From: an uncultured virus (IMG/VR IMGVR_UViG_3300027884_000001) | Taxonomy: Duplodnaviria > Heunggongvirae > Uroviricota > Caudoviricetes | Strand: one strand, 5' to 3' | IMG/VR virus record: IMGVR_UViG_3300027884_000001 | Length of the DNA: 64,000 nt | Shown here: positions 17,131 to 42,150 of the stretch, in pieces | How the letters are laid out: the number at the start of each line of letters is the position of its first letter | How positions within the stretch are numbered: the stretch's first letter is position 1 | The notes under the pieces: generated by a model | Database searches by the model: none | Told to the model about the DNA's origin: nothing | What the model saw: the letters and a program-made list of their open reading frames with translations, nothing else | Position numbers and translations under genes: made by a program

Positions 17131-17216
17131 TGTTTGCCACGTACTTCGACGCTCTACCGAGCGCAAGTCTTGGAGCGAACCACGACCGACACGATCTTCT
17201 TCGGGATGACGTAGCG

Positions 17217-21100: not shown

Positions 21101-22831
21101 CGGCGTCGCGTTTCCGATGTCTCCGGTGTTCGTCAGCCACACGCCGGTGATGCCCGTGAACGTGCCGACGGTGTAGTAACCGCCGGCTGTTCCGCCTGCG
21201 GTGGGACCTCCAACGAAGACGGTTTGCTGCGTGGCCATCCACGCGTTGTCGACAACCGCTACGTCGACCGTACCGCCCACCGCCGGCTGAACGAAGTCTG
21301 CCGTCGTCGTGGTGAACGCATTGATTCCTGATGCGCCCGTCGGACCTGTAGGACCCGTCGCGCCCGCAGGACCGGTGGCGCCTGCAGGACCCGTCGGTCC
21401 GGTCGCACCAGCGGGTCCGGTAGCTCCCTGTGCACCCGTCGCGCCGGCTGGACCCGTCGGTCCCGTGGCGCCAGCGCTTCCTGTCGGGCCAGTGGGACCC
21501 GTCGCTCCGGCGGCACCGGTTGCCCCTTGCGCGCCGGTCGCACCCGTTGCCCCCTGGACGCCGCCAGGAGAAACCGGCGACGGTTGCAAGATCGTAGCGC
21601 CCGGCGTTGCGTTGCCAAGATCTCCTGTGTTGGTGAGCCAGACACCTGTGATCCCGGTGAAGGTGCCGACGGTGTAGTAGCCACCCGCGGTGCCGCCCGC
21701 CGTCGGTCCGCCGACGAACACCGTCTGCTGCGTCGCCATCCATGCGTCGTTGACAACAGCGACGAGCACGGTCGCTCCGGCCGCCGGCTGCACGAAGTCT
21801 GCGGTCGTCGTCGTGAACGCGTTGATACCGGACGCTCCGGTAGGTCCTGTCGGCCCGATCGGTCCTGTCGGACCCGTCGCTCCCGCGGGACCCGTGGGCC
21901 CCGTCGCGCCCTGGGCACCTGTGGCACCTGCAGGACCGGTGGCGCCTTGAGCGCCCGTGGCGCCAGCGGGTCCTGTCGCCCCTTGCGCGCCGGTAGCGCC
22001 TTGCGGTCCTGTAGGTCCCTGCGCGCCGGTCGCCCCAGCGGGCCCAGTGGGACCTGTCGCTCCCGCGGCTCCCGTCGCGCCAGCAGTTCCTGTTGCGCCG
22101 GTCGCGCCTTGCACGCCACCCGGCGACACGTCCGACGTCGCGCCGATCGTCGTACCTTGCGGCGCGTTGCCGATGTCGCCGGTGTTCGTGAAGACGCCAC
22201 CGGTCGTGCCGGTGACCGTGTCCGCGACGTAGTAGCCAGCGACCGTGGCGCCCGCCGTCGGTCCCGCGATGAAGACGACCTGCCCGATCGCGATCCATGC
22301 GCTCATCGCCATCGCGATGGCGACGGTTCCTCCAGCAGCCGGAGCTTGGAAGTCGGCGGTCGTGACGGTGAACGCGTTGATACCGCTCGCGCCCGTAGGA
22401 CCCGTCGGCCCTGTCGCGCCGGCCGCACCGGTGGGTCCGGTCGCGCCAGCAGGTCCCGTGGGACCCGCAGACCCTGTTGCACCTGCGGGTCCTGTGGGTC
22501 CGGTTGCGCCTGCGGCGCCAGTTGCACCCGCGGCGCCAGTGGGCCCCGTCGCACCCGCGGGTCCTGTCGCTCCCGCTGGACCGGTGGGTCCTGTCGCGCC
22601 AGCGGGACCTGTCGGACCCGTGGGGCCTGATCCGCTGGGACCCGTCGGGCCAGTCGGACCTGTAGGTCCTGTCGGCCCAGCGCCGCTCGGCCCCGTGGGC
22701 CCTGTCGGACCCGTCGCGCCCGTGGCGCCCGCGCCGCTTGGACCTGTGGGACCCGTCGGGCCCGTAGGACCTGTGGGACCAGTCGGGCCTGTCGGCCCAC
22801 CAGCAGTGCCTCCAAGAAGGATCTCCGCCAC
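18128..22831 (-). CDS. Collagen-like (GPT/GAT repeat) fibre protein, 1567 aa
   Basis: Long (G-P/A-T)n tracts alternate with five homologous modules starting 'GASGINAFT'; the fifth carries an inserted beta-rich domain; Gly-rich C-terminus. Confidence 0.9.
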
Positions 22832-25921: not shown

Positions 25922-26479
25922 GTGCAGATCGTCGTCTTCCCTCTCGCGGTCGCCAAGTACACGATCTGCAGCGCGTTCGGCGATCCGCGCGGCAACGGCA
26001 CCACCCACCACGGCGTCGATCTCTGCGCGCCGATGGGAACGCCGGTGCTCGCCGTCAACAACGGCGTCGTGCGCTTCGGCACCGATCCGAAGGGCGGCAC
26101 CGTAGCTCTGCTCGCCGCCGACAGCGGTGGGACGTTTTACAACGCGCACCTGTCGGGCACCGAGGGCGTCAGCGGCCGGCGCGTGGAGCCCGGCGACATC
26201 ATCGGCTACGTCGGGATGTCGGGCAATGCGGCGACGACGCTGCCGCACCTGCACTTCGAGGCGTGGCCGACGGGCGTGTACACGACCTACATCGACCCCA
26301 CGCCGATGCTGCTCACTGCGCAGCGGTTCACGTCGCCGCCGGGTGCAGCGCCGGGACCGATGTCCACGCGTGAAGCGGTCGGTGTCGCGGTTGGGATCGT
26401 CGTCGCTGCCGGCGTGCTCGCGTTCGCGTTGTCACCCGACAGCAAGCCGGCTCGCAGAACGCGCACGCGACACGCTTGA
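25922..26479 (+). CDS. M23 family metallo-endopeptidase with C-terminal membrane anchor
   Basis: HHGVDL (HxxxD), YNAHL, 'G.SGNA...PHLHFE' (HxH); C-terminal TM plus basic tail. Confidence 0.9.
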   Translation: MQIVVFPLAVAKYTICSAFGDPRGNGTTHHGVDLCAPMGTPVLAVNNGVVRFGTDPKGGTVALLAADSGGTFYNAHLSGTEGVSGRRVEPGDIIGYVGMSGNAATTLPHLHFEAWPTGVYTTYIDPTPMLLTAQRFTSPPGAAPGPMSTREAVGVAVGIVVAAGVLAFALSPDSKPARRTRTRHA

Positions 26480-26565
26480 CCTGTGCGAGCCAGCTGATAG
26501 ATTCGACTCAACGATCGAGACGCGTCCTCCACGTGAGGCCACCTCCCGCTTCGTTGCGCTGGGCC

Positions 26566-26604
26566 GCTGCCCGCTCCCGAAAGGTGGCGGGCAGTTGCTT
26601 TTTT
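26566..26604 (+). terminator. Rho-independent terminator between the M23 gene and the CRISPR trailer
   Basis: CTGCCCGC...GCGGGCAG stem followed by TTGCTTTTTT. Confidence 0.7.
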
Positions 26605-26633
26605 GTATGGTCGAACTCGACATGCGCGCGCTT

Positions 26634-29600
26634 GTCTCCATGTTCGATCTCATGGAGCCTGAACGAGCTGCAGCGTCCCAACGCGTCTCCGCTACCTGAG
26701 TCTCCATGCCCGATCTCATGGAGCTTGATCTCAACGCAGCGCCCCAGGCTGACGAGAGCTACCGTTCGATCGCGACGTAGACGTCTCCATGCCCGATCTC
26801 ATGGAGCCTGATCTCGACGACCCCTGGGTACGACCAGGTGAGCGGTGTCCTCTATGTCTCCATGCCCGATCTCATGGAGCTTGATCTCGACGCCCTCCGG
26901 CTGGACCTCCAGCGGCGCGCAGAGCGGTCGTCTCCATGCCCGATCTCATGGAGCTTGATCTCGGATCGATGACGCCTGCTCCTGGCACGAAGTGTCTCCA
27001 TGCTCGATCTCACGGAGCTTGATCTCGACACGTTATGCACTCAGAGGACAAACTCCTCGACGCTTGGTCTCCATGCTCGATCTCATGGAGCCTGATCTCG
27101 ACAGGTCGTGGCGCCGTGGGACCAGATGAATCGGCGTTGTCTCCACGACCGATCTCATGGAGCCTGATTTCGACGTCACTGCTCGATGTGGGTACGGACG
27201 TCGCCATGGTCGTCTCCGTGCCTGGTCTCACGGAGCTTACAGGATCGCGCGGCCGGTGGAGTATGTCTCCATGCCCGATCTCATGGAGCCTGATCTCAAC
27301 GCACGCGCTCGTTCATGCGACACCCCGCAGTCTCCACGTTCGATCTCATGGAGCCTGATCTCGACTCGACCCGGACGAGGTCATCTGAGCCATGAGCACC
27401 ACGTCTCCATGCCCGATCTCATGGAGCTTGATCTCGACTATACGTACGCGGTCGCGGCTGTTCGTCTCCACGCTCGATCTCATGGAGCCTGATCTCGACT
27501 TGCCGCCGCCGTCGTAGGGGCCCTGTGGGATGCTGCGTCTCCATGCCCGATCTCATGGAGCCCGACTTCAACCAGATAGCGTGAACACCAGGACCCCAGA
27601 CACGAAGTGTCTCCATGGCCGATCTCATGGAGCCTGATCTCGACGACGAACGCGACGTGCGCCGCATCGAGTCCGGTGAGTCTCCATGTTCGATCTCATG
27701 GAGCTTGATCTCAACGCACGCGCTCGTTCATGCGACACCCCGCAGTCTCCATGTTCGGATCTCATGGAGCCTGATCTCGACTTGGTCCGACACTGGATCG
27801 ACCACCTGTCTCCATGACTGATCTCATGGAGCTTGACTGCGACACCCCTGGTCGTCTCCATGCTCGATCTCACGGAGCTTGATCTCGACGGCAGAGCCGC
27901 GACACGCACACGCGCGCCCGCACGCTCGTCTCCATGCCCGATCTCATGGAGCCTGATCTCGACAGACCACTGCTGGCCGGCGGTGGTTCGCTCGTATGGT
28001 CTCCATGCCCGATCTCATGGAGCCTGATCTCGACGAGGTAGCCCGTGAAAACGCAGCGTAGGAGGTCTGTCTCCATGCCCGATCTCATGGAGCCTGATCT
28101 CGACCATATGGACCTATTCTACAATGTACCACACTGAGGAGGTCTCCATGCCCGATCTCATGGAGCTTGATCTCGAGGAGCAGAGCGTCGAGGTGACGCA
28201 CAGAGTGGCGGCTGCGTCTCCATGCCCGATCTCATGGAGCTTGATCTCGAGTGGCTGGAGTGGCGGAACGGCAGACGCGGCGGTCTTTAGTCTCCATGCC
28301 CGATTTCATGGAGCCTGATCTCGACCGCGTTCACGCAGTACCTTCGCGTCTCCATGCCCGATCTCATGGAGCCTGATCTCGACGCCTCCGGCGTCAGGCG
28401 CAGCCGCGGCCCGGCGTGATCGTCTCCATGCCCGATCTCATGGAGCCTGATCTCGACCTGGTAGGGCGAGCCTTCGTCGCGGCAGTTGATGCTGTCTCCA
28501 TGCCAGATCTCATGGAGCCTGATCTCGACAGTTCGCGGCCGACGGTCACGAGTCGCCACCCTCCGGGTCTCCATGCCCGATCTCATGGAGCCTGATCTCG
28601 ACGTCCTACCCGCGCCAGCTCGCTGTGGGGCTGATGGTCGTCTCCATGCCCGATTTCATGGAGCCTGATCTCGACCTCCGAGCCATCAGGAACCGGGCCG
28701 ACCTCTCGACGTCTCCATGCCTGATTTCATGGAGCCTGATCTCGACTACTTTGTCGAGGGCGAAAAGGACGTCGACAGCCTGTGGTCTCCATGCCCGATC
28801 TCATGGAGCCTGATCTCGACGCGTCCAGCAAGCGCGCGAGGATCTGAGGACGGACCGGTGCGCCGTCTCCATGCCCGATCTCATGGAGCCTGATCTCGAC
28901 AGGTCGGCAGGAGCGACGGAGGGGAGGGAGGGGTCTGTCTCCATGCCCGATCTCATGGAGCCCGATCTCGACCTGCTCTCGCGCCGATGGTGGGCCACCG
29001 TTACCCCGTCTCCATGCCCGATCTCATGGAGCCCGATCTCGACGGACACGTGGGAGGGCAGCGGCGACACGGTGGAGTTGTCTCCATGCCCGATCTCATG
29101 GAGCCCGATCTCGACATGTTCATGGGGCCTCATGTTCTGCGGTATCCGGTGGTCTCCATGCCCGATCTCATGGAGCCCGATCTCGACCCGGATGTTCTCA
29201 CGCCACACTGGATCTGGCTGCCGTCTCCATGGTCGATCTCATGGAGCCTGATCTCGACGTCCCAAGTTGTCGACGGCCCCAAGCCGAAGGCCCTGTCTCC
29301 ATGGTCGATCTCATGGAGCCTGATCTCGACACAGTAGCCGTCCGGCAGGCTGCGGCAACCTTCACGAGGTCTCCATGGTCGATCTCATGGAGCCTGATCT
29401 CGACCCTGGTCGACGTGCTCGTGGTCGTGGAGGCGCCTTTGTCTCCATGGTCGATCTCATGGAGCCTGATCTCGACGAAGAAACAGGGCCGGCTCACGTG
29501 AGGTAAGGCACGTGTCTCCATGGTCGATCTCATGGAGCCTGATCTCGACTTCTCGCGAACCCGGGTCTCTCTGCCGACCATCACCCTGTCTCCATGGTCG

Positions 29601-30932
29601 ATCTCATGGAGCCTGATCTCGACTATGCGCCTGGTTTGATCGCGCATACGGGATGAACCTGTCTCCATGGTCGATCTCATGGAGCCTGATCTCGACTCGC
29701 GGCGATGACGGTCACCCCCCAGCAGCGTCACAAGTCTCCATGGTCGATCTCATGGAGCCTGATCTCGACTTGGTCCGATGACCAAGCTCACTGGACCGAC
29801 CACTTGTCTCCATGGTCGATCTCATGGAGCCTGATCTCGACGAGGCGCAGGCCGGCGACGACCCGACCTCTCAGGTGGTGTCTCCATGGTCGATCTCATG
29901 GAGCCTGATCTCGACACACGCTCACGGAGTTCGCAGAGCGCATCCGCACGTCGTCTCCATGGTCGATCTCATGGAGCCTGATCTCGACGGAGGCTAGGCT
30001 TTTGGGTCGCGCCCGGTGGTGTCGCGTCTCCATGGTCGATCTCATGGAGCCTGATCTCGACGCGTGCAGTGGTCGGCGCGTCAGTGCCGTCAGTAGCTTG
30101 TCTCCATGGTCGATCTCATGGAGCCTGATCTCGACACGAATCACCGCTGCAGCTGCCGGAGGCCGCGCGGGACGTCTCCATGGTCGATCTCATGGAGCCT
30201 GATCTCGACGCCAGGGATCTGGGGCGCGAGCGACCTCGCTGGGAGTGTCTCCATGGTCGATCTCATGGAGCCTGATCTCGACGAGGATGGCTAGTCGGGG
30301 TGTGATGTGCGCCGCTTGTCTCCATGGTCGATCTCATGGAGCCTGATCTCGACATGCCGCCCGCGGCGGCGTAGCCGTAGCCACAAATGGTCTCCATGGT
30401 CGATCTCATGGAGCCTGATCTCGACGCGGTTCACCCTGAGGAAGACGCGGGCAGTCTCGCTGTCTCCATGGTCGATCTCATGGAGCCTGATCTCGACACC
30501 TTGCTTGAGCGCCGCATGACGCCTGAGGAGTTGGTCTCCATGGTCGATCTCATGGAGCCTGATCTCGACGCCGTAGGGGTGGGGGTCGGGCGCGTCGACT
30601 AGTGTGCGTCTCCATGGTCGATCTCATGGAGCCTGATCTCGACGTCGACCGCCCGGTCGGCTACGTCATTGCTCGCTGAGTCTCCATGGTCGATCTCATG
30701 GAGCCCGATCTCGACGTCGATCGCGCCCCACGCGCTGCGCGCTCGCCTGCGTGTCTCCATGCCCGATCTCATGGAGCCCGATCTCGACCCAGCATGCCGG
30801 CGTGTTCCTCACCGAGCTTCATGAGTCTCCATGCCCGATCTCATGGAGCCCGATCTCGACCATCGAGGACCTGAAAGCCGGGTACTGGTCGGTTTTGTCT
30901 CCATGGTCGATCTCATGGAGCCTGATCTCGAC
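26634..30932 (-). CRISPR. CRISPR array, about 61 repeats of 36 bp and about 60 spacers (mostly 34-38 bp)
   Basis: Plus-strand repeat GTCTCCATG(CC/GT)CGATCTCATGGAGCC(T/C)GATCTCGAC, counted by hand. Minus-strand form GTCGAGATCAGGCTCCATGAGATCGACCATGGAGAC has a 7-bp CTCCATG/CATGGAG hairpin near its 3' end. Repeats decay toward 26634 (trailer). Confidence 0.98.
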
Positions 30933-30951
30933 AGGTCGCGCACAACCGTAG

Positions 30952-32838
30952 TCATTCTGCGCCATCAGCGTCCGCTTCGCGAGCGGTTGCCATTCGCGCC
31001 ACCTTTTCCGCTCGAAGTCGCGCCACTTTTGCCCATCGCCCTTCCTTCTTCTCTCCGTTTTCGTTCGTTTTCTCTTGCTCGCGAGCACTCACCACGATTT
31101 TTGCATCGCCAGGGCGCTCGCGCCACCGAGCCAGCAGCACCAGCGGGGCGCCGTCGACGTCCTGATCCCATCTTGCGCCACATTCGCACTCCAACCGCAC
31201 AGCAGCAGCCGCGTCACGCGATTCGACCAGACCACACGTCGGGCACGTTCGTGTTGTGTCTGCGCACGGTACCGCGAACAACGCGGCGCGCCTGCTACGT
31301 GCTGCCGTTTCCATGCACGAAACAAGTTCGCTGGTCGATGCCAGCACTCGATTGGCGCGAGCCGTCTCGTTTTCGGTCGTCGCATCACGCGAGGTCGCCG
31401 CGACACGTCGCTTGTCGAAGTTCTCGATCACGATCGTGTCGTACTTGGTCGCTAGCTGCGCTGCCCACACCCGGTATTTCTCACGACGCCTGCGAAGCGC
31501 TTGCCCGCGAGCGCAGCTCTCGACGGCCCAATCGTGTCTCGCTCTGAACGCCCAGTTGGTCAACGCATCGTACGCTGCCTCGTCATCGGCAAAACGTGCG
31601 TCCATCCAACGGTTGCGTAGCGCCACCATTCTCGCTTCCGCCTTCCACGCGTGCACGTTCGCGCTGATCACGCGAAGCCAGTCGGGGAGGATCTCCCGGT
31701 GATCGCGCAGCCAGACGCTGAGCGCGAGGCGTGCCGCGTCGAAACGCAGGTCGCGAGCCGATCGCATCGCCTCCGGCGCTCGCAATACAGCCAGATCCTT
31801 CGCCGACAGGCGCAGCTCGCCTCGGTCTCCGGTGTCGTCCTGCCATCCGGCCACACGAAGCTCGTCGCCCATGACACGCCAGCCAACATCGACCGCGATT
31901 GTACCAGTGCCAGCCGTCGATGCTCGCGTCGATGCAGGCACGTCGAGCGTGAACGTCACGTGCCATCGGTCGTACGGACCGACGCGTTTCCGGTGTACGG
32001 TCGCGAGCTGAATCGTGGATCCGACGGGCAGCGGCCTGTGCATGTCCATGCGCCACGAACCCCAGACAGGGTCCCGACCGTTGCTGCCGATCCGGATCGA
32101 CAGCTGTGCCTGACGCGCCATGTTTTCGCATTCGCGATGTGTACGTCCGCTACGGTCCCACGCGCGTTCATCCGGAAGCACGATACGCAACCGCGAATCG
32201 TTACCGGAGGCGGCACGCTCGACAGTCAGAGACTTCGTAGCCTTGTCGGCGGTCGCCGTCTGGATCTGGACACCGACCGAACCTTCGCCAGTCCAACGCG
32301 CCCACGCCGGATCGTTCGCGTGACCGTCTTTGTTATAAAGACTCGTGTCGCTGAACGAGTCGCTCACCGCCCCCTCGACCAGTAGGTAGCTGCCCCAGTA
32401 CACGCCACAGTTTGCCCGAGCGCTACGCTGCAACTCCTTGGCGCGCTCACCAATCGCGTCACGCGCGGCGATCATGGCCGGACTGTCCTTGATTTTTAGC
32501 CGTAGCTCGCGGAACGCTTTGGCGGCGTCGCGTTCCGCTACTCGCGCCGCCCGAAGCGTGTCGCGCATCTCTTGCGGTTCGTCACGTTTACGGCTGCGCG
32601 CCCGATGTCGCTTGATTGCGCCATCAGCAAGCTCTCTGGCTCCTATAGCCATGGTGAGGGCTCGCTGTGCAGCCGGCATGTCGCCGGCTTCCGCTTCCAC
32701 CAAACGTACAGCCGCCCGACGACCTCGTTCGATCTCTACGAGCGTGTTGCGGTACCGATGAGCGGCCCGCATCTGTAGATCGATGAGATCAAAGTTTTCA
32801 TGTGGCGAAGCGAGTGCGTATTTGTAGACGAGCTTCAT
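30952..32838 (-). CDS. cas12m: Compact type V CRISPR effector, Cas12m (V-U1/C2c4)-like, 628 aa
   Basis: ATG 32838 with AAGGAG RBS. 'Q...AH.YRN.LVEIE', long Arg/Ala coiled coil, 'YWGSY', 'W.GEGSVGVQIQ', 'MHRPLP', RuvC-I 'IAVDVGWR', RuvC-II 'IVIENFD', Zn finger 'TRTCPTCG...CECG', RuvC-III 'WDQD'. Collinear with MmCas12m as recalled; abuts the array. Confidence 0.85.
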   Translation of the reverse strand: MKLVYKYALASPHENFDLIDLQMRAAHRYRNTLVEIERGRRAAVRLVEAEAGDMPAAQRALTMAIGARELADGAIKRHRARSRKRDEPQEMRDTLRAARVAERDAAKAFRELRLKIKDSPAMIAARDAIGERAKELQRSARANCGVYWGSYLLVEGAVSDSFSDTSLYNKDGHANDPAWARWTGEGSVGVQIQTATADKATKSLTVERAASGNDSRLRIVLPDERAWDRSGRTHRECENMARQAQLSIRIGSNGRDPVWGSWRMDMHRPLPVGSTIQLATVHRKRVGPYDRWHVTFTLDVPASTRASTAGTGTIAVDVGWRVMGDELRVAGWQDDTGDRGELRLSAKDLAVLRAPEAMRSARDLRFDAARLALSVWLRDHREILPDWLRVISANVHAWKAEARMVALRNRWMDARFADDEAAYDALTNWAFRARHDWAVESCARGQALRRRREKYRVWAAQLATKYDTIVIENFDKRRVAATSRDATTENETARANRVLASTSELVSCMETAARSRRAALFAVPCADTTRTCPTCGLVESRDAAAAVRLECECGARWDQDVDGAPLVLLARWRERPGDAKIVVSAREQEKTNENGEKKEGRWAKVARLRAEKVARMATAREADADGAE

Positions 32839-32866
32839 GGTGACGATCTCCTTGTTGCGCTTGTCG

Positions 32867-33547
32867 CTACCGTATCGATCGCTCGGCCGTCTCCGGCAGC
32901 AACGTGTTGCAACGGATGCACCGATCGACCACATACTTATTTGTCTCGCCACATGCACACCGACGAAACTCTGGTTCATGCGGCATCGCTCTCTCATTGA
33001 GCGCGTCAAGTTCTTGCTGGTCAACAGGACAGTGAGGCCGAAACCGAAACGTCTTGAGTCTCTCCGCAGCGCTCTGTTCGTTACGCACTTCCTCACGTTC
33101 GATCGCGTACCGCCCTAGCCTGGTAACTCTCGAACGCAAAACTTTAGCCGCACTCGTCAAGACGCGATCCTTATCGCCGATCCGTTCGCAAATCGACGCC
33201 GCCTTTTCAAGCTCAAAATCCTCGGCGACTTCTTCGTCACTCGGCATCGGTTCGTACCGTTCAATCCAGTGCCGCATTTCCATAAGCACAAGCTCCGCAC
33301 ATGTGTTCGCTAACGTCGCCACACCGAACGGCTCTACAGTGGTAGCTTGCACACGACAGTCTTCGCGTTGGCAACCAACCACGAACGTTTTGCCGCCGTC
33401 ACATAGTCCGACTTGATACATGCCACATCCGTGTATTGGGCATCGGCAGTCGCGCAGCCGAGCGACAGGATCCATTTCGTCTAGCCACGCGCGGAACTGT
33501 TCCGCTGTCCAACGATCGAGGTCGACGACATTGTCGCCCGTCTTCAT
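32867..33547 (-). CDS. Cys-rich (putative Zn-binding) protein immediately upstream of the cas gene
   Basis: CxCxxHxC...C..C cluster at the N-terminus and CxC...CxxC at the C-terminus; stop 28 nt before the cas start. Confidence 0.55.
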   Translation of the reverse strand: MKTGDNVVDLDRWTAEQFRAWLDEMDPVARLRDCRCPIHGCGMYQVGLCDGGKTFVVGCQREDCRVQATTVEPFGVATLANTCAELVLMEMRHWIERYEPMPSDEEVAEDFELEKAASICERIGDKDRVLTSAAKVLRSRVTRLGRYAIEREEVRNEQSAAERLKTFRFRPHCPVDQQELDALNERAMPHEPEFRRCACGETNKYVVDRCIRCNTLLPETAERSIR

Positions 33548-33813
33548 CTTGCACCGCCCGACTTTTGTTTTCCTGGTTGCCGATGAGACGCCCCTTTCGC
33601 GATCATCGTTTCATGCAACGATCTGATCGCTTCACGCACAACCGCAGCTCGGGCAACGTGGTGATCTGGCATCGACGCCTGGCGGTCAGCCACCAGGTCG
33701 GCAAGCATCGCTGCGGATTCTGGTCCCAAGCGCATGAACAGATGTAACGCTCGCTTCGAGTACGTGCGACCATCGAGCTTCTCGCTGTTCACTTTCTTTT
33801 GTTTGCGTTTCAC
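33544..33813 (-). CDS. Ribbon-helix-helix-like DNA-binding protein
   Basis: 'LHLFMRL...AAMLADL......ARAAVVREAI' strand-helix-helix pattern. Confidence 0.55.
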   Translation of the reverse strand: MKRKQKKVNSEKLDGRTYSKRALHLFMRLGPESAAMLADLVADRQASMPDHHVARAAVVREAIRSLHETMIAKGASHRQPGKQKSGGAR

Positions 33814-34123
33814 TTGCCGCTCCCCTCGCCGCCGACGTCGTCCACGAGCAGCCAGCCGGCGGCGCGCACTATTCGATCCGCCTGCTCTCTGTTGCTGAAC
33901 GGTGGCGCGCCGCCGTTACGATGAAGCAGCTCCAGTTGACACGCCTCTGTGTCCGACGTGGGCGCGCTCGGATCCGTTGTTGCGGCGAACATCGGGAAAC
34001 TCAGCAACCGCCGCTGACCGTTCTCCCACGGCCCCGCCACCTTCGGCGCCGTCTTGAGCGACTCGTAGATCTCCCACGGCGTCATCTTCGACCAGTCGAC
34101 GATCATGTTGCGCTCCTCGTTGT

Positions 34124-34636
34124 TCATCGTCTCGATCCTTTGCGAATGTACTCCAGCGCCGACATCGACAGCTTCCAATCGCCCGACTTGTACAAGCTTC
34201 CGCCGCCGCACTCGCCGTCGCGCAGGTACCACATCGCGTACGTGCACTCGTGGATGGTGATGGCGATGCTGCCGTCGGTGTAGATGAGCGCGTGCGTCTC
34301 TCCGAACGCTTCGCGCACCGCATCATCGCTCGACGTCGGATCCATCGCGTAGACGTGCACGGCGTCCTCGCGATGCCCGTCTGTGACCGGACCGACGTAG
34401 TCGATGTCGACCGGGAACTTATAGTCCGGATGGTCGCCGTGCTCGTGCTCCCACATCGACCAGTCCGCGGCGATGCACTTGATGGGCAGCCCGTTGGGCG
34501 CGTGCTCGATACCGCCCTGCTTCTTGGCGTAGGCGACGTGGCAGTCCCAGTCGCAGAAGTAGACCGACTCGTTCGGCTTGCCGCAGTCAAGACAGTTGAT
34601 CGTCGTCACCGTCGTGACCCCTTGTGCGCCGGACAC
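34124..34636 (-). CDS. Hypothetical Cys/His-rich phage protein
   Basis: CxxC...FCxxxC motif; coupled to neighbours. Confidence 0.5.
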   Translation of the reverse strand: MSGAQGVTTVTTINCLDCGKPNESVYFCDWDCHVAYAKKQGGIEHAPNGLPIKCIAADWSMWEHEHGDHPDYKFPVDIDYVGPVTDGHREDAVHVYAMDPTSSDDAVREAFGETHALIYTDGSIAITIHECTYAMWYLRDGECGGGSLYKSGDWKLSMSALEYIRKGSRR

Positions 34637-34814
34637 TTGACCTTGAGGTTGGTGCCGCGCACGTGTTCTCCTCGCGGGCTCGGCGCGAAGGTCCAGCCAG
34701 CCTCTCTGAGCTTCACGAGCGTCGACGTCGTTTCGGCGACAACAATCTCGTCCACAAGATGAACGAAGCTCTCGGTGCAGCGACGAGCGTCGCAGTCGAA
34801 GATGATGCGGACGG

Positions 34815-35426
34815 TCATCCGCGCTTCTCTCTCAGGATCCGAATCTGCTCCTGCAGCATCTCGACGACGCGTCTCACGCCGTCAACCGGCATCCCGTACG
34901 GCTCCTCGAGCGACGGATCGATCTTCCTCAAGTACGCGCCGACCGCCATGTTGCTCTCGGCGGCGACATTGACCCAGGCGCGCTGCGCGAGGATCTCGTT
35001 GAGGATCGACATCATGACGTCGGCGTTCACGAGTACCATCTTGAAGCCGCTGTCCTTCGCGATACGTGTCGCCATCCGCATCTCCTGGATCCCGGCCTCG
35101 TCGATGTCGGCGGATTTGATGCCATCCTCGTAGCCCATCGCGTACCCGACAACCTCGGCTACCTCTTCGTTGGACACCTCGGGCGACTTCGGGGCCGCTG
35201 CCAGCTGCGCTCGCGTCTCCTGCAGCTCCGTCAGGAGCGCTGTGCGCATCGCCGACCGACCCACACGGACGTTCTCGATCTCGTCCTGCAGGCGCTGCCG
35301 CTCACGCTCGGCACGCTCCAGCTCGGAGATGAGACGACGGCACTGCTGCATACTCAGGCCCGCGCGCATCGCGTCGCGCAGCTGCTGCAACTCTTCGGAC
35401 GGGATCGGTTCGTAGCTCATGATCAC
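34815..35426 (-). CDS. Coiled-coil hypothetical protein
   Basis: GGGAG RBS; heptad-rich. Confidence 0.55.
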   Translation of the reverse strand: MIMSYEPIPSEELQQLRDAMRAGLSMQQCRRLISELERAERERQRLQDEIENVRVGRSAMRTALLTELQETRAQLAAAPKSPEVSNEEVAEVVGYAMGYEDGIKSADIDEAGIQEMRMATRIAKDSGFKMVLVNADVMMSILNEILAQRAWVNVAAESNMAVGAYLRKIDPSLEEPYGMPVDGVRRVVEMLQEQIRILREKRG

Positions 35427-35796
35427 TCCCTCAGCTCTTCACCCTGCACTCGTTCCGCACGTCTTCAATGTCGTACGAAGTTCACTCGGCCGCCCTCGGG
35501 CCACACCATGTCGCACGCGATGTTGATCTGACTGCGCTTGAGCGCACCCATCACGTCTTCGCCGTGCTTGACGAAGCACGCGTCGCACAGAAGCAGCCAG
35601 CTCGCTATGCCCTCGCGACCGTCCGGTCTCCGGAACGCGATGCCCCCGCGAGGATCGTCGCTTGCCAGCCAGTAGAAGTGCGCCCCTTGCAACGGATCTG
35701 GCTCGTGCTCGCAGCCGATGACGACGTCGCCACCGGAAGGCTGCGTCGGCGATTCCTTTTCGACCCGATCGCTGGTGCGCTGGATGAGCGAGCGCC

Positions 35797-37149
35797 TCAC
35801 TTGGACTTCCGCCTGCTCTTGCCCGCCTTCTTCTTCTTCGTTTCCGCCACCTTCTTCTTGTGCTCCAGCTTCTTGATGAGCTTCTTCGTCCGCGCGACGA
35901 TGCCCTCGTACGACTTCAAGCGGCGTCGCACAGCGATCAACGGCAGATGCCGGCGGTAGCGGCGATGTCTGCGACGAAAGTTCGGTGCGCGAACGCCCGT
36001 GCCGTACGCCACGCCGACGCGACCGCCGCGCTTCACGACAAGAATATCGCCGACGTCGACGCGCCGCCTGCGCAAGCTCTTGACGACTTTGTCGCGAAGC
36101 TCGGCAGACGTCTGCGGGTGGATCGCGATGGCAGCAAAAACGTTGCGCATCAACTCGCTCGTGTTGTTGCGTCGACTGCGGCGGCCACGGCGAGCGCGGA
36201 GTCCGCGCCGGAGACCTCCTTTCGCGAATTGCTTCCATGCATCCATCGCCAGCGACGACGCGCGGTTCACGATCTCATCCAACAACGACGACGGTGTCGC
36301 GTCGTTGCAGCAGATGGCCTCGATGAGCGATTCGACCTCGTAGGGGTTCAGCTTGCCGGTAGCGAGCGTTTCGAACGTGATCGTCAGCTGCTCCGCGGTG
36401 GCCGTGCCCTGATAGACCTGGAACACGACGGAGCCTGGGTACCGCTCGCTGCGTTCGTAGACATCCTTGAAGATGTCGAAGACGCGCGGCCCATGCACTT
36501 TGGCCAGGATCATGATGTCGATCTGCTCGTCGAGCGACGTGAACGCCGACGCGGTCTCCACACGCCAGCCGCGGTCGCCGTCAGCGGCGCGTGGCATCAT
36601 GAGCGCCATCTTGTCGTGCTCGTCACCTAACGGGACCTTACGTTCGAAGAAGAAGAACGTCGCGTTGTTCGACTCGTACTCCTCGAAGTAGCCCTCGCGA
36701 AGCATCGAGATGCACCACTTGGTGCCCAGGCCGTAGTGAACGCTGGCTTGTTTGTTCTTGATGTGGCGCACGATGAGATCGGGCGAGTCGTATACGATCT
36801 CGGCCTCGACGGGCCCCTCGAGTCGGTAGAGCTTCTCGCGTTGTTTGCGTTTGCGATCCTGCTTGCGCTTGATCTTCAGCAGGTTGTCGCGAAGGCTGGC
36901 GAGATCCTGCGGGCGGTACGAGTAGATGTCGGGATGGATCCGACGCGCGCCGAACCACTGGCCGTTGAACCTGTGGAACATCTCGATGATGTCCGACAGC
37001 TCCTCGGTAAGCGCTTGATTCGCGGCGAGCATCCTGGCGCCCCAATCCAGGTACTTGAGGTTGCCGGACGGATCGCGCGCAGCAAGCGTTCGGATCCCGT
37101 CCTCGTGCGCGGGATACTTCTGCAGCACCTGATCGAGACGTGTGCTCAC
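35797..37149 (-). CDS. Conserved phage protein with 'DP...KYL.W' and 'S..YG.GTKWCIS' motifs, basic C-terminus
   Basis: Motifs I associate with large-phage hypothetical proteins; function unknown. Confidence 0.55.
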   Translation of the reverse strand: MSTRLDQVLQKYPAHEDGIRTLAARDPSGNLKYLDWGARMLAANQALTEELSDIIEMFHRFNGQWFGARRIHPDIYSYRPQDLASLRDNLLKIKRKQDRKRKQREKLYRLEGPVEAEIVYDSPDLIVRHIKNKQASVHYGLGTKWCISMLREGYFEEYESNNATFFFFERKVPLGDEHDKMALMMPRAADGDRGWRVETASAFTSLDEQIDIMILAKVHGPRVFDIFKDVYERSERYPGSVVFQVYQGTATAEQLTITFETLATGKLNPYEVESLIEAICCNDATPSSLLDEIVNRASSLAMDAWKQFAKGGLRRGLRARRGRRSRRNNTSELMRNVFAAIAIHPQTSAELRDKVVKSLRRRRVDVGDILVVKRGGRVGVAYGTGVRAPNFRRRHRRYRRHLPLIAVRRRLKSYEGIVARTKKLIKKLEHKKKVAETKKKKAGKSRRKSK

Positions 37150-37483
37150 GGGTTGTAGTCCGACTGTTTGATGTCGACACCGAGCAGAGCGTGGAGCTTT
37201 TGATGAAGCTCGTGCATCTCTTCGATGACCTTACGTCGACGCTCGTCGACACCGCTCTCGCGGTCGTAGATCACGTTGGTCGCTCGAGTCACGCCGAAGT
37301 ACGCGTCACACGTTTCGCGCGACGGGTTGGCTTTGAGCGCGTCGGCAAGATTGTCCAGCGCAGCCCAGCGAGCATGACGTTCGTCGTGCAGGCGCTTGTA
37401 CTCGACAACCAGCTCGTCGAGGACGCCGCGGTTGGCACGTAGCTGGACGATGAGGCTGTCGACTTCGGGATCGGTGATGCTGG

Positions 37484-38413
37484 TCATGCTTGCGTCCCTC
37501 GATGCGTGTGGATGTCGGCTTCGCCTGGCACGAGCTTTCTGTACTGAACCCAACCGTTATAGTTGCCGAGGAAGTGCGTCTCGCGACCCGAGATCGTCAG
37601 CCATCCTCCGACTCCCGCGTCCCAGACTCGATGCGGCTGCTCGAACATCAGCAGCTCCGACAACGTCATCGGACGAGCCGGATGCTCGAGAGGGCTCATG
37701 TGACCCGACTCCAGTAGCGAGTCGTGGAGCCTGAGGTCCTCAACCGGATCGCGCTTGCCGTCGTGTGTGAGGTACGACACGCGAGCGCACCGGCCGGCCG
37801 AGACCTTCACCCAGTCGATCGACGCCTCGACCATCTCAGCCTCGGTCACCAGCGGCAAGTGCCACTGCTTCGACGACAGATCCAGCGGCTTGCTCGCCAA
37901 GTGCAGCTGGTGCATCAAGTCGGCGGCCTTGTGGATCTCCGGCTGCGCCTTCTTGTTGTCGCGCAGGTTGAAAAAATTGCCCCACTCAGTCGCGGAAACA
38001 ATGACCGTGTGCCAGAGCCACGGTTCGAGTAGCCGGTTGGGGATCTGCTTGTGAACGTCGAGACCGCCTTGTTCTTCTGGGACGGCGAGAAAGTGGGCGG
38101 TGTTGATGGCGTGGTTGCGTAGTTCGCGCCACGCGAAGTCCGCCCGAGCAAGATCTTCATCTTCAAGCACCTCGCTGGAGGCCTGCATGCCTTTTTGGTT
38201 CTTGCCCCACACGGCCGGCACGAACGGGTTCTCGCGTACGCGTTCGAGCATCTTCTTGACCGGGATCGCGCGACTCGAGGCGCTGTTGCGCGAGAAGACG
38301 CGATGCGTGTTGAACTCAGCGAGCACGATGCGAGGGAATGTGACCTCGAACGTCGTCAGCCGGTGACCGATCGGCGAGACCGAGTCCGCGAGAATCTTGG
38401 CGTCGTACCCCAT
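37484..38413 (-). CDS. thyX: FAD-dependent thymidylate synthase
   Basis: 'AEFNTHRVFSRNSASSRAIP', 'HKQ..NRLLEP', 'AQPEI', 'H.SP.EH.A' of the phage-type ThyX. Confidence 0.85.
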   Translation of the reverse strand: MGYDAKILADSVSPIGHRLTTFEVTFPRIVLAEFNTHRVFSRNSASSRAIPVKKMLERVRENPFVPAVWGKNQKGMQASSEVLEDEDLARADFAWRELRNHAINTAHFLAVPEEQGGLDVHKQIPNRLLEPWLWHTVIVSATEWGNFFNLRDNKKAQPEIHKAADLMHQLHLASKPLDLSSKQWHLPLVTEAEMVEASIDWVKVSAGRCARVSYLTHDGKRDPVEDLRLHDSLLESGHMSPLEHPARPMTLSELLMFEQPHRVWDAGVGGWLTISGRETHFLGNYNGWVQYRKLVPGEADIHTHRGTQA

Positions 38414-38479
38414 TCACACCCTCCGTTCGTTGCGCTGAGCGTTTTGTTAGCTCGTCGCGGCGGCGCTGTCTACGGCTAA

Positions 38480-40018
38480 CTACTCGTCGCCGTCTTTGTA
38501 CTCGTCGTCATAGTCCTTGAGCGTATCGATGTACCTGCCGCGCTCGAACTCGAGCAACGTGATGCTCGTCTCGTCGAGGCGACCCTTGGCCAGCGCGAAC
38601 GCTGTCGGTTTGCCCTTGATGAAGATGCCGCTCATCGGATCGCGCGGCCGGTGCATGATGAAGATCTGGTCGGCGTCCTGCTCCAGCGAGCCGCTCTCGC
38701 GAAGGTGGTGAAGTTTCGGCATCGCATCCGCGTTCTTCTGCCGCTCGGCATCACGATGGATCTGCGCGAGCGCCATCACGTGACATCCGAGCTTCGTCGC
38801 GATGACACGCAACCCTCGACTCGTCTCGGCGACCTGCTGTTCACGCGTGCCCTTCTTGAGCAGCTCCGCGCTCGGCTTCACCAGACCGATGTGGTCGATG
38901 ACGACGAGTGTCAGCTTCTTGCCGGCGCGATCAAGAATCCGAGCACGATCGGTCGCCGCCGAAAGCACGCTGACGAGCGTCTGCTCTAGGCTCACCGTGA
39001 ACCACAGCTCCAGGTCCTTGACTGACTTCACGGACGCGGTGAGGTCTCGCCACTGATCCGTGTTGAGAACTTTCCTGCGGATCGCTGCCACAGACACGCC
39101 TGGCGTGCGTGCGGCCAGAAGCTTCGTCGTGAACGACTTGTGCGGCATCTCCATCGTGACGTACAGCGCGCCTACCTTCGGATCGCTAGCGACCATGTGC
39201 TCTGCGATCTGCACCGCGATCGTGCTCTTGCCGACGTTCGTCCTGGCGGCCAGGATGCTTGTTTCTGGTGCGCGCAGACCGCCGTTGATCATCTCGTCGA
39301 TGTTGTTGAGCCCCGTCGGAACCGCTGCACCTGTCGGCGCCATCAGGTCGGTGAAGAACTGTTCGGCCGACTGCTTGAGACTGATCGTGGAAGCGATTGC
39401 ACTTGATCGCTCCATGATGTCCGCGGATGCTTTTTCGGCGAGCCTGTAGATCTCGATGTCGCTGATCCTCGGATCGAGCGCGCTTTCGACAACTCGGCGG
39501 AGGCCGCGGATCGCCTCGCGCTTCGTCCATGCCGACTTGATCGACTCAGCGTACGCACGCGCCTGAACTTCGCTCACGGTCGACGCTGAAGATTGAAGCT
39601 TTTCCAGTGCGCCGATGCCGGTCCTGTCGCTACTGTAGCCAAGCTTGGCGGCATGCGACGCCACTTGGACGGGATCGTGTTCCACAGGAGTGTGTCCCGT
39701 CTCCTCGATCTTCGCGAGGCACGCGAGCATGGCTTCGTAGATCTCGCCGTGAGCCGTCTCGTAGAATGGTTTGCGGTCCGGCAAGATGTCCTGCACTGCG
39801 CTCGCTCGGAGCACGTCCGGAGCGTTCGATGCAGACCACAGGAACGCCGCCAGCAAAGCTTTCTCGGCAGCTACCTCAGCTGGTTCGCCGATCTTGCGCA
39901 TCCTCGCGTCGACCACATGAAGCTCGACACGCTTCGTTCCTTCGGCGAGGTTCGGCGAGAGCTTGCCCGCAGCGAGCAGCTCGTTTTCGTCAGGGACCCT
40001 CGGTCTGTCGTTGCTCAC
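38480..40018 (-). CDS. dnaB: DnaB-like replicative helicase
   Basis: Walker A 'AARTNVGKS', 'TMEM', 'VVIDHIGL', 'LAQIHR', 'LRESGSLEQDAD'; GTG start overlaps the primase stop. Confidence 0.92.
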   Translation of the reverse strand: MSNDRPRVPDENELLAAGKLSPNLAEGTKRVELHVVDARMRKIGEPAEVAAEKALLAAFLWSASNAPDVLRASAVQDILPDRKPFYETAHGEIYEAMLACLAKIEETGHTPVEHDPVQVASHAAKLGYSSDRTGIGALEKLQSSASTVSEVQARAYAESIKSAWTKREAIRGLRRVVESALDPRISDIEIYRLAEKASADIMERSSAIASTISLKQSAEQFFTDLMAPTGAAVPTGLNNIDEMINGGLRAPETSILAARTNVGKSTIAVQIAEHMVASDPKVGALYVTMEMPHKSFTTKLLAARTPGVSVAAIRRKVLNTDQWRDLTASVKSVKDLELWFTVSLEQTLVSVLSAATDRARILDRAGKKLTLVVIDHIGLVKPSAELLKKGTREQQVAETSRGLRVIATKLGCHVMALAQIHRDAERQKNADAMPKLHHLRESGSLEQDADQIFIMHRPRDPMSGIFIKGKPTAFALAKGRLDETSITLLEFERGRYIDTLKDYDDEYKDGDE

Positions 40019-42150
40019 GCTTGCCGCCTCCACAGGAAGGCGCGACGCCGCAAGGTGTTCTCGATCTCCTGCGCGTAACGATTGCCCGCTTCGTCGACGT
40101 CTGTTCGAAGATAGACGCGAGCGCCGAGAGGGACACGCTCGGCGAACGCTTTGGTCCATGACCCGCTGACGATGCCAAACGTAGCGCCATGAGCATCGTT
40201 GGTTACGCTTGCGCGCGACAAGAAGTCAGGTTCACCCTCAACGATACCGATGCGGTACGGCTTGATCTCGCCACGCAGCATCGCGCGTCCGAACGCGTCG
40301 GCCATGACCATCTCGCCCGCCTTGTGCCCGAACGGTGGCTTGCGTTTCGCGCCATCGCCGTCGACGACGCGCCACGCGCGCACCGACCGCATCTCACCGG
40401 TCGCGTCGTACATCCCGACCAGCAACCGGTAGCCGACCTCGCGCCACGTGCCGCCGGTCGCGTACGCCCACCGCGGCAACGCGCCCGACGGCGAAATCGC
40501 GCGCGCGAGATCGCGCGAGTCGATGACGTCCGGATCGAGCGAGCGGCCTCGCAGATAGGCGGCCACAATCGGATCGTCGTACGTCGGCACGCACGACGCC
40601 CACAGCGCGTCGACCTCGTCCTTCGGCGGCCACGCGCGCGGCGGCTCTTCGACCGGTGGCGGCAACGGCGCCGGAGCCGGCGCTGGATGATCGTCGCGCG
40701 GACCGCGCCCTTCGAGCTTGTCGACGAGCTGCCACATGCCGGCCAGGCGCGCGCCCTCGACGAGCACACGCTTGAAGTCGGTGTCGATCTTCAGACCGCG
40801 CACGGCGGCGATGAGCGACAGCACATCGCCCGTCGCTTCGCAGTTGTGCACCGTGAGCGTCGGCGTAGAGAATGTTCCGTCGGACGTTGTGACGTCTACC
40901 ACCTGTTGCTCGCGTTCTTCGGGCGTGACATTGACCAGCTTCGAGCAGAGGGCCCATCTGCCATCGGCCAGACGCACGACAGCCTCGCTCTTGCGCAGCT
41001 GATGTCTAGGTATCCAGCTAGCCCGCGTAGCGCTCTCCACTTGCTCCATCGAGCCAGCCGCGAAGTTGATGCCGTAGATCGGCAACTTGTCTTGCGGGTA
41101 CGATGGTGACCAACGTCTCGGGAACGCGTGACACCGCGCAGCTATCACGAAAGCTGCGTCTACGAGATGGCTGGACGTGACGCTGATGACGTTTCTGGCG
41201 CGACTACCGTCACCGTCTCGTAGGCCAAGAAGCCAGAAAGCTGCTGCTCGCACAGGACCAAGCAACAACTGCGCCGGACACCGCTTGTTTTCCGTTCCAG
41301 AGCCGCAATGCTCCGCGAAGACGTCGGCCGCAACCGCGCTGGAGATGCGAATCTCGGCGCTGTTCTCACGGTCCGGCCACGTCCGTACCGACGCTGTTGC
41401 TCCGAACATGTCGGCCACGCGTCGAAGTCTAGGAAGAAACTTCTCAACCTCGTCGATGTGGATGGAGAACGTAACGCAGCGACCGCCGGCACTTCCTTCC
41501 GCGGCGTACAGTCCAAACGCCCACGCCAGATCCGCTTCGTGACCGTCGACCTCTTGTAGTTCTTTTCTGGCCAGCGGGGACGTTCGACCATGATGCAGAC
41601 GGATTCTCCAGCTGGACACGGTTTGCTCGGGGATACAGAACGGCAACCAGTCCGAAGGCTGTAGCTCGTCGGCGTCGCGCTCCAACAGCTTGCCTGTCCA
41701 GCGCTGTCGCGCCAACGAGTGCGGTGTCACTGGCGCGTCCGTAACGAGCATCCGATGGTTTCCGGTCACGAACACGCCCCGCGTGTCCGACACTGTCTGC
41801 ACACGGAGTACGCGTTCGCGACGGGCTCGATACGTCTTCATGACGACGCTCGTGCCACTCGATCCGAACACCCTATCGCCTTCGACGAGATCTCCGAGTC
41901 GCCGAAACCCTAGCGGAGTCAGAACGCTCGTGGCGACCGGCAAGCACCCCCAACACTTCCAGAGGATCACGCCGCCCTTGTTCTGCACCGAGCAGCTCGG
42001 GCTGCCGTCTTCGTGCACGGGGCAGCGGATCATCCATCCGCCGGCCTGACGCGCTCGCGCCTTGCCCTGACCCATGATGCCGAGCGCCTCGAGCACGCGA
42101 GTCGGATCGCTGAGAGCGCGCTTGATCTCGGCGACGTCCTGGTCAGCCAC
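40015..42150 (-). CDS. DNA primase (CHC2 zinc finger + TOPRIM), intein-interrupted
   Basis: 'CPVHED..PS...WKCWG|C..GD' zinc finger; TOPRIM 'IVEGEPD...TDVDEAG'. Confidence 0.88.
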   Translation of the reverse strand: MADQDVAEIKRALSDPTRVLEALGIMGQGKARARQAGGWMIRCPVHEDGSPSCSVQNKGGVILWKCWGCLPVATSVLTPLGFRRLGDLVEGDRVFGSSGTSVVMKTYRARRERVLRVQTVSDTRGVFVTGNHRMLVTDAPVTPHSLARQRWTGKLLERDADELQPSDWLPFCIPEQTVSSWRIRLHHGRTSPLARKELQEVDGHEADLAWAFGLYAAEGSAGGRCVTFSIHIDEVEKFLPRLRRVADMFGATASVRTWPDRENSAEIRISSAVAADVFAEHCGSGTENKRCPAQLLLGPVRAAAFWLLGLRDGDGSRARNVISVTSSHLVDAAFVIAARCHAFPRRWSPSYPQDKLPIYGINFAAGSMEQVESATRASWIPRHQLRKSEAVVRLADGRWALCSKLVNVTPEEREQQVVDVTTSDGTFSTPTLTVHNCEATGDVLSLIAAVRGLKIDTDFKRVLVEGARLAGMWQLVDKLEGRGPRDDHPAPAPAPLPPPVEEPPRAWPPKDEVDALWASCVPTYDDPIVAAYLRGRSLDPDVIDSRDLARAISPSGALPRWAYATGGTWREVGYRLLVGMYDATGEMRSVRAWRVVDGDGAKRKPPFGHKAGEMVMADAFGRAMLRGEIKPYRIGIVEGEPDFLSRASVTNDAHGATFGIVSGSWTKAFAERVPLGARVYLRTDVDEAGNRYAQEIENTLRRRAFLWRRQA
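40843..41946 (-). mobile_element. Intein (368 aa) with LAGLIDADG homing endonuclease
   Basis: Block A 'CLPVATSVLT', block B 'VTGNHRM', endonuclease motifs 'FGLYAAEGS' and 'LGLRDGDGS', terminal 'VVDVT...VHN|C'. Confidence 0.93.

Follow-up and report, generated by a model that had tools for sequence, protein, structure and literature searches.

The stretch of DNA analysed here (the window, 64 kb of IMG/VR record IMGVR_UViG_3300027884_000001) carries on its minus strand the gene of a compact effector assigned to the Cas12m family and, directly behind it, a CRISPR array. A sequence-only reading of this DNA had proposed a locus of this kind at 26634-32838, with a Cas12m-like effector of 628 amino acids (aa) and an array of hairpin-forming repeats. 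The coordinates and the length of the effector proved to be exact, the family was borne out alike by PADLOC, the PDB profile and the predicted fold, and repeat counting and folding returned the same array, which consists of 61 repeats of 36 nucleotides (nt) and 60 spacers. The features of the locus and of its surroundings were collected in Table 1.

Table 1. Features of the cas12m locus and the neighbouring region (positions in the window)
Feature	Position	Strand	Basis and remarks
M23 peptidase, endolysin-like	25922..26479	+	PHROG endolysin 1.9e-20; Pfam Peptidase_M23 4.6e-17
Hairpin (8 bp, G+C-rich, 12-nt loop) followed by TTGCTTTTTTGT	26567..26610	+	Read directly; 24 nt beyond the last repeat
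CRISPR array	26634..30932	-	Consensus matching and repeat-by-repeat reading; effector end uniform, far end (26634-27890) degenerate
Junction of 19 nt that separates the first repeat from the cas12m stop codon (TGA, 30954-30952)	30933..30951	-	Read directly
cas12m gene, 628 aa	30952..32838	-	RuvC triad D317/E472/D560; zinc ribbon C532/C535/C551/C553
A-rich 3' end of the cas12m coding region	30955..31110	-	Candidate array leader or internal promoter region, from position only
Shine-Dalgarno AAGGAG, 9 nt before the ATG at 32838	32848..32853	-	Read directly
Cys-rich gene, 226 aa, upstream of cas12m	32867..33547	-	Gap of 28 nt to cas12m
ThyX, DnaB helicase and primase (replication block upstream of cas12m)	37484..42150	-	PHROG, Pfam

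The effector and its array

The effector matched the PADLOC profile Cas12u1, the former name of type V-M, with an E-value of 6.1e-80, residues 3-574 being aligned to positions 4-532 of the 533 in the profile. In a phmmer search against the PDB the best match was 23vw_A, entitled 'CRISPR-associated DNA-binding protein Cas12m' (8e-49, residues 8-568), followed by 8pm4, the Cas12m2 entries and UnCas12m4a; no paper behind the entries 23vw and 23vu was found in the literature searched. A family profile of 33 sequences retrieved five Cas12m sequences from the PDB at 1.4e-129 to 6e-48, and the next match was a TnpB-like protein at 1e-8, aligned by the C-terminus only. The AlphaFold2 model of the effector (predicted local distance difference test score 88.3) was placed by Foldseek beside the Cas12m2 and GoCas12m structures 8hhl, 8hio, 8pm4 and 8hhm, which occupied ranks 1-4 (TMq 0.61-0.74, TMt 0.73-0.78), with Cas12f following at a TM of at most 0.38. 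The predicted model is accordingly assigned the Cas12m fold (WED, REC1/REC2, RuvC and TNB), and the only Pfam match was the Cas12f1-like TNB zinc ribbon (PF07282, 8e-6). By sequence profile, PDB profile and predicted fold, the effector is thus assigned to the Cas12m family, that is type V-M, formerly V-U1. Identity as a TnpB or IS200/IS605 nuclease, named in the sequence-only reading as one refuting outcome, was rejected, because the NCBIfam model guided_TnpB (NF040570) gave 27.4 bits against a cut-off of 100, over residues 458-564 only, and because an array of 61 repeats is present. TnpB and Fanzor entries of the PDB were matched only weakly, both by the family profile and by Foldseek.

The catalytic triad of the RuvC domain was placed by alignment to the chain of 8pm4, which carries the Foldseek title Cas12m-crRNA-target DNA complex; the triad and the CCCC zinc ribbon are both intact. 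In the 33 closest relatives neither E472 nor D560 varies and D317 is kept in at least 90%, and the four cysteines of the zinc ribbon are likewise conserved. In the 58 near-full-length members from related loci the triad is D-E-D in 47 and different in 11 (NED, NDD, NGD, NHD, EKD or EED), and several of the members with such other triads retain arrays. The reading frame of the gene (30952-33096, minus strand) is open for 714 aa from its first GTG. The true start is assigned to the ATG that gives 628 aa, because a Shine-Dalgarno motif stands 9 nt before it, the upstream gene ends at 32867 and M1 is invariant in the nine closest homologues.

At no more than three mismatches the 36-nt consensus was found 55 times, on one strand only and between 26700 and 30932, with no match expected from 100 shuffles. 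When up to eight substitutions were allowed, 59 copies were recovered, and two extra degenerate repeats, one at 27212-27247 and one with a 1-nt insertion at 27745-27781, bring the total to 61. The periods reported by TRF within the array were 71-74 nt (about 72-73). Most spacers (49 of the 60) are 34-38 nt long, and nine of the 11 with odd lengths (10-30, 44 or 47 nt) lie in the distal third, farthest from the gene. One 29-nt spacer is present twice in this worn end (27301-27329 and 27716-27744), as a segmental duplication would leave it.

Read from the gene end, the repeat variants follow in the order A, C, C, H, then A twenty times and C four times, and after these the consensus B mixed with many single variants. 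The gene-proximal repeats are uniform (one variant accounts for 21 copies, of which 20 stand in a row) and the repeats far away are eroded, so that the gene-proximal end should be young and the distal end old. The order of the variants at the young end is non-monotonic, which would be better explained by recombination between array variants than by one-by-one addition. Since the junction between the stop codon and the first repeat is so short, there is no space for a separate leader, and the A-rich 3' end of cas12m is probably the leader or the internal promoter region of the array.

The sequence-only reading had also called the array strikingly long, and this held true: the longest array among 61 related loci has 32 repeats. 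That array belongs to locus L041 (2048-4353), whose effector is a relative at 64% identity and whose repeat has the GTCG start and the CTCCAT/ATGGAGAC stem in common with that of the window. Given this 32-repeat array with a similar repeat, long arrays may be a trait of this subclade.

Guide RNA and adaptation genes

On the strand of the gene the sequence of the repeat is GUCGAGAUCAGG-CUCCAUG-AGAUCGRSC-CAUGGAG-AC. Folding of this RNA gives a 7-bp hairpin two bases from the 3' end (-10.4 kcal/mol); such a 3' hairpin is characteristic of the guides of Cas12m and is the usual layout in type V. Covariation was evaluated in 28 repeats, one each from 26 related arrays together with two variants from the window. 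In this set 92.9% of the cells of the stem are paired and compensatory change occurs at four of the five pairs; the covariation score was reached in none of 500 shuffles, and slid controls fell to 36-45% paired. The columns of the stem equal the pairs -23..-20 with -6..-3, and those of the candidate pseudoknot, which is weaker here, equal the pairs -28..-26 with -17..-15, both as described for the CRISPR RNA (crRNA) of PmCas12m (10.64898/2026.03.26.714355).

Within the array the substitutions are found at positions 1-11 and at the loop positions 25-27, and the few changes in the stem are G-U wobbles or, in the copy at 27212, the compensatory pair A17G/U30C. The 24-nt 3' handle is retained at no more than two mismatches in 59 copies, even in the terminal one, which is worn elsewhere, a pattern that matches selection on the part of the repeat that would stay in the mature guide. 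Elsewhere in the window the 24-nt handle does not recur, and solitary repeats or a mini-array there were rejected for this reason. The covariance-model matches found outside the array were taken as noise, since with this model even the repeats of the window itself reach no more than about 15 bits (E 0.1-0.5).

Neither Cas1, Cas2 nor Cas4 was found in any of the 97 open reading frames (ORFs) of the window by a Pfam scan at E<=0.001, and this ORF set leaves no uncovered gap longer than 509 nt outside the array. An anti-repeat was likewise missing from the window; beyond the array, stretches complementary to the repeat reach at most 12 nt (E 0.08), and all matches of that length lie more than 3.9 kb from the locus. 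Both absences had been claimed from the sequence alone and both stood, the former for these 64 kb only, because the window is cut at both ends and ORFs are open at both. An array beside the effector, together with the lack of a trans-activating crRNA (tracrRNA), is the arrangement that would be expected for guidance by crRNA only.

The absence of Cas1 extends to the related viruses, none of 10 whole viral records with relatives of the effector being positive. Seven of these records are 100% complete according to CheckV and three have direct terminal repeats; the positive controls were detected in seven of 14 reference genomes. The window repeat was not found in viral contigs, in 185,579 species genomes or, with a loosened pattern, in metagenome contigs, collections that evidently do not hold the record of the window itself. 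A Pirellulales metagenome-assembled genome (MAG) that holds a Cas12m relative (L039) contains at L110 (G017:C55, 10982-12104) a 650-aa ORF with a Cas1 domain next to an array that has 36-nt repeats, at least 16 in number, and spacers similar in length. L110 was considered as a host-type array sharing the Cas12m repeat and was rejected, because its repeat is unrelated in sequence to the one linked to the L039 Cas12m, so that it lends no support to shared repeats; the binning of L039 is also uncertain.

Phage context, relatives and occurrence in soil

Among the 48 larger proteins of the window 18 matched PHROG families, including a tail fibre, an endolysin, an HNH endonuclease, DnaB, a primase, ThyX, a dCTP deaminase and a RecE/YqaJ-type exonuclease, and three genes match a 91%-complete IMG/VR virus (L007) at 32-62% identity. 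From the window alone, a phage is the likely carrier. The phage lysis and replication genes that the sequence-only reading had placed to either side were confirmed as phage-like, with an endolysin-like M23 gene beyond the array and ThyX, DnaB and primase upstream of cas12m. The cas12m gene is the last of the minus-strand replication block, convergent with the plus-strand lysis genes. The hairpin between array and lysis genes looks like a plus-strand intrinsic terminator that closes the lysis block, and it may also stop the minus-strand transcript of the array; it was left unlisted by the terminator scanner because its loop of 12 nt exceeds the scanner limit of 8. Upstream of cas12m, the 226-aa Cys-rich gene is probably in the same transcript, given the short gap between the two. 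No PHROGs, Pfam or PADLOC match was obtained for its product, which was rejected as a conserved partner since no homologue stands beside cas12m in the related loci.

With regard to the identity of the carrier, a tblastn search with the DnaB of the window gave only 27-29% identity, to phages of many hosts, no nucleotide match of the region 33000-45000 to known phages was obtained, and no tRNA gene was found in the window. PcfJ-like, SprT-like and DUF3846 domains were recognised by Pfam. The tail-fibre protein (18128-22831, minus strand) is collagen-like and 1,567 aa long (PHROG tail fibre 9.7e-97), in which Pfam matched collagen triple-helix repeat over nine stretches (5.6e-40). In the region 12730-18116 (minus strand), a protein of 1,478 aa combines a Methyltransf_24 domain (2e-16) with a glycosyltransferase-like C-terminus (PHROG 1.7e-16) and adjoins a radical-SAM/SPASM enzyme at 17217-18116 on the minus strand; these genes may form a modification module beside the tail-fibre gene. 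Both ThyX (37484-38413) and a dCTP-deaminase-like enzyme (44007-44921) are encoded on the minus strand. The strongest family match in the window belongs to a 243-aa protein (62178-62909, plus strand), which matches DUF7873 over its whole length at 2.9e-102.

A protein search with the effector gave 216 matches, the closest at 63-67% identity, and an exhaustive search returned 3,189 representative clusters, of which 1,510 had E<=1e-30. Thirty-seven IMG/VR contigs encode relatives (25-41% identity), and some of these contigs are complete genomes with terminal repeats; relatives also lie on two MAG contigs and 69 metagenome contigs. At least 44 of 61 related viral and metagenomic loci, those with at least 250 bp downstream of the gene, have an array that starts no more than 400 bp downstream; 44 is a lower bound, as some small arrays were missed by the detector. 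The flanking genes are mostly unrelated between loci, which indicates that the cassette sits in many different phage backbones, often near thymidylate synthase. A thymidylate synthase homologue was found upstream of cas12m within 2.5 kb in L004 and L031 and at about 7 kb in L013/L014.

Parts of the stretch were found in five soil-metagenome runs from five studies, none of which is RNA. Both flanks are matched exactly in run X1, which may be the source sample, and runs X2 and X3 contain 95-99% variants of the gene and of spacers from the old end. In run X4 a contig of 160 nt joins a known old spacer and its repeat to a 31-nt spacer that is absent from the window, followed by a repeat. This is modest evidence that the array content differs between populations, since the contigs are k-mer contigs. 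Two joints seen in run X1 (26926 to 28395, and 27853 back to 26994) were rejected as rearrangements because both pass through identical 36-nt repeats in k-mer contigs; the join 27853-26994 may reflect the same duplication as the repeated 29-nt spacer, or an ambiguity of k-mer assembly.

The spacers have a mean codon-position score of 1.76, compared with 0.65 for shuffles (z 7.8) and 2.44 for real genes of the window, and 17 of 49 lie above the 95th percentile of shuffles. Since this is the codon-position composition of high-GC coding DNA, the spacers look like captured fragments of genes from genomes of similar composition. Calling the strand of the spacers was correct for 62% of controls, which is too weak for use.

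Mode of action, alternatives and comparison with known systems

The locus is likely to be a type V-M (Cas12m) CRISPR locus on an uncultured high-GC tailed soil phage, acting by crRNA-guided binding of DNA without cutting. The array would be transcribed by read-through from the minus-strand block of replication and nucleotide-metabolism genes, or from inside the 3' end of cas12m. Cas12m itself would trim the transcript inside each repeat, giving guides in which the last 24-30 nt or so of the repeat form a 5' handle in front of the spacer. The complex would bind double-stranded DNA (dsDNA) that has a protospacer-adjacent motif (PAM) beside it and block the transcription or replication of the target without cutting, as other Cas12m proteins do, D-E-D forms included; the targets would probably be rival phages, other mobile elements or host genes of similar G+C content. 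New spacers would enter at the effector end, and because no phage Cas1-Cas2 was found in the window they would have to be acquired through a host integrase that works in trans or by recombination among array variants.

Published work on other members of the family speaks for binding without cutting. PAM-dependent, crRNA-guided DNA binding has been shown for MmCas12m2, GoCas12m, PmCas12m and D-E-D variants (PMC10442227, PMC11013384, 10.64898/2026.03.26.714355), and D-E-D is listed among the triads of Cas12m clades 3 and 4 (PMC10442227). Bigelyte et al. reported D-E-D, H-D-D and N-D-D Cas12m proteins that do not cleave dsDNA, that work without tracrRNA and whose processing of pre-crRNA is independent of RuvC (PMC11013384). 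The repeated loss of the triad in relatives that retain arrays would also fit binding without cutting.

Several results weigh against this interpretation. No promoter of the array was found, as a scan of 26000-34000 for sigma-70-like sites scored none in 30955-31110; the sole site scored in that region is on the plus strand at 26476 and uninformative, 1.7 being expected by chance. The pseudoknot of the solved Cas12m guides is only partly supported family-wide, with 59.8% of the cells paired between columns 8-11 and 20-23 and the three inner pairs present in 19-20 of the 28 sequences. In the window repeat it would be shifted to GAUC(6-9) with GAUC(21-24), and it would be broken at position 21 in three copies. 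The search for spacer targets covered the window, related loci, phages, plasmids and five whole viral records, with IMG/VR and metagenomes outside the spacer-by-spacer scan. None turned up elsewhere in the window, in 108 related loci or in 50,697 phage records; 72,556 plasmids gave only three matches at E 0.1, and the best match in five whole related viral records had E 0.016 over 21 nt, the plasmid and viral matches being taken as chance. As no spacer target was found, the biological role has no support from data. No capsid, portal or terminase gene was found by PHROG or Pfam in the 64-kb window, which is cut at both ends, so that the phage identity and the absence of cas1 are both read from partial sequence. 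Finally, the near-invariance of D-E-D in the 33 closest relatives may reflect selection for catalysis, and hence cutting.

This last point leads to an alternative in which the locus is the same and the effector is an active nuclease, whose intact D-E-D RuvC domain cuts target DNA in the manner of CasPhi or Cas12f and destroys rival genomes. It is favoured by the conservation of D317, E472 and D560 in the closest relatives and by the predominance of D-E-D among the 58 members compared. Omura et al. also wrote that the D-E-D clades 3 and 4 'may facilitate' DNA hydrolysis (PMC10442227), and hydrolysis is likewise suggested for MvCas12m in the myxophage preprint (10.64898/2026.09.14.751636). However, all four D-E-D variants tested by Bigelyte et al. 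bound dsDNA and none cut it (PMC11013384), and conversion of the HDD of Cas12m2 to DED did not restore cleavage in the published account (PMC10442227). For the closest solved relative, 23vw, the depositors chose the name DNA-binding protein, and the triad has been lost in 11 of the 58 relatives. Cutting is therefore regarded as unlikely, though it deserves to be taken seriously. Doubt about the carrier is smaller. A plasmid, an integrated prophage or a chromosomal island, with a complete cas operon or a host array of the same repeat just beyond the 64 kb, would agree with the lack of capsid, portal and terminase matches in a window that is cut at both ends. PcfJ-like, SprT-like and DUF3846 domains occur on conjugative elements too. 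Type V-M is also reported to be strongly enriched in plasmids (PMC11656645). Such a carrier is judged improbable in view of the tail-fibre protein, the endolysin-like M23 peptidase, the HNH endonuclease and the phage-type replication and nucleotide genes, of the three homologues on the nearly complete virus L007, and of the relatives on 37 IMG/VR contigs, which include complete genomes with terminal repeats and of which the 10 whole records examined had no Cas1. The window repeat was also missing from the 185,579 species genomes.

The least credible of the explanations, and one to which hardly any weight is given, is that of a relic in decay, whose array came from a cellular ancestor and has ceased to take up spacers or to guide anything. 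The erosion of the distal third, with its nine odd-length spacers, two badly degenerate repeats and one duplicated spacer, would agree with it, as would the lack of targets in the collections searched. Against it stand an intact cas12m with a good ribosome-binding site, the run of uniform repeats at the effector end, stem pairing that is preserved even in old copies, and the spacer in the X4 contig that is absent from the window, by which array content would vary between populations. It is very improbable, yet worth naming, that phage Cas12m arrays grow without a repeat-matched Cas1-Cas2, by an undescribed route such as effector-assisted or recombination-driven capture. This route would be compatible with 60 spacers of mostly 34-38 nt, the block-ordered repeat variants, the codon-position signal and the X4 spacer; Cas1 was found in no related viral genome and no cellular array with the window repeat was found.

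One implication of the sequence-only reading, that the design itself is new, did not survive. The same design is described in a myxophage preprint, in a survey of huge phages and in a review (10.64898/2026.09.14.751636, PMC7162821, PMC11656645), and it recurs on the 37 IMG/VR contigs. In huge phages, type V-U variants were described by Al-Shayeb et al. (2020), nearly all of them without Cas1, Cas2 and Cas4, the median array having six repeats (PMC7162821). The 2024 review places V-M on plasmids and 'some prophages' (PMC11656645), and the preprint of September 2026 calls MvCas12m the first Cas12m in a bacteriophage (10.64898/2026.09.14.751636). What the present locus adds is a well-preserved, phage-borne D-E-D Cas12m with by far the longest array among its relatives. 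The long and orderly array and the Cas1-free relatives sharpen the question of how spacers are supplied to CRISPR loci of mobile elements that lack adaptation genes, and the recurrence of the phage in a number of soil metagenomes, of which one or more differ in array content, offers a usable natural case for tracking spacer gain. As a presumed compact DNA binder, the effector could be one more candidate scaffold for base or epigenome editors, among many similar proteins (the 1,510 clusters above).

With the characterised proteins 23vw, MmCas12m2 (8hhl, 8hio), GoCas12m (8pm4) and PmCas12m the window effector shares full-length homology, fold and a size of about 600 aa, and their loci likewise have a single crRNA with a 3' hairpin handle and no adaptation genes. 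In contrast, it is only about 22% identical to Cas12m2 and GoCas12m in structural alignment, its triad is D-E-D where MmCas12m2 and GoCas12m have H-D-D and PmCas12m has N-D-D (PMC10442227, PMC11013384, 10.64898/2026.03.26.714355), and it is carried by a phage whereas the characterised proteins come from plasmids or chromosomes. TnpB has the RuvC and zinc-ribbon core in common with the effector, as seen in the PF07282 match, but works with a single omega RNA where the window locus has a true CRISPR array. CasPhi (Cas12j) and the V-U and V-F systems of huge phages also pair a compact single effector with an adjacent array, nearly always without Cas1, Cas2 and Cas4, and a role in competition with other phages or in the control of host genes has been proposed for phage type V systems (PMC7162821). 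CasPhi is remote from the window effector (profile E 1.4e-4, C-terminus only; Foldseek TM at most 0.30), and the huge-phage median of six repeats compares with 61 here. Type IV-A3 of plasmids is similar in sitting on a mobile element, in non-nucleolytic interference and in lacking an adaptation module of its own, and it acquires spacers in trans, which makes it a model for the growth of such an array (10.1101/2023.06.23.546257). It differs in its multi-subunit class 1 effector, an unrelated protein family, and no demonstration of acquisition in trans for Cas12m loci was found in the literature consulted.

The nearest parallel is MvCas12m of the myxophage MV-1, which is also encoded by a phage, has about 610 aa and carries an intact D-E-D triad (D305/E463/D555). 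According to the preprint, its locus likewise has an adjacent array, lacks cas1, cas2, cas4 and a tracrRNA, and yielded no spacer targets (10.64898/2026.09.14.751636). The MV-1 array has eight spacers as opposed to 60 here, the loci being compared by published description. The kind of locus is therefore already described, and the length of the array is the one unusual trait of the present example.

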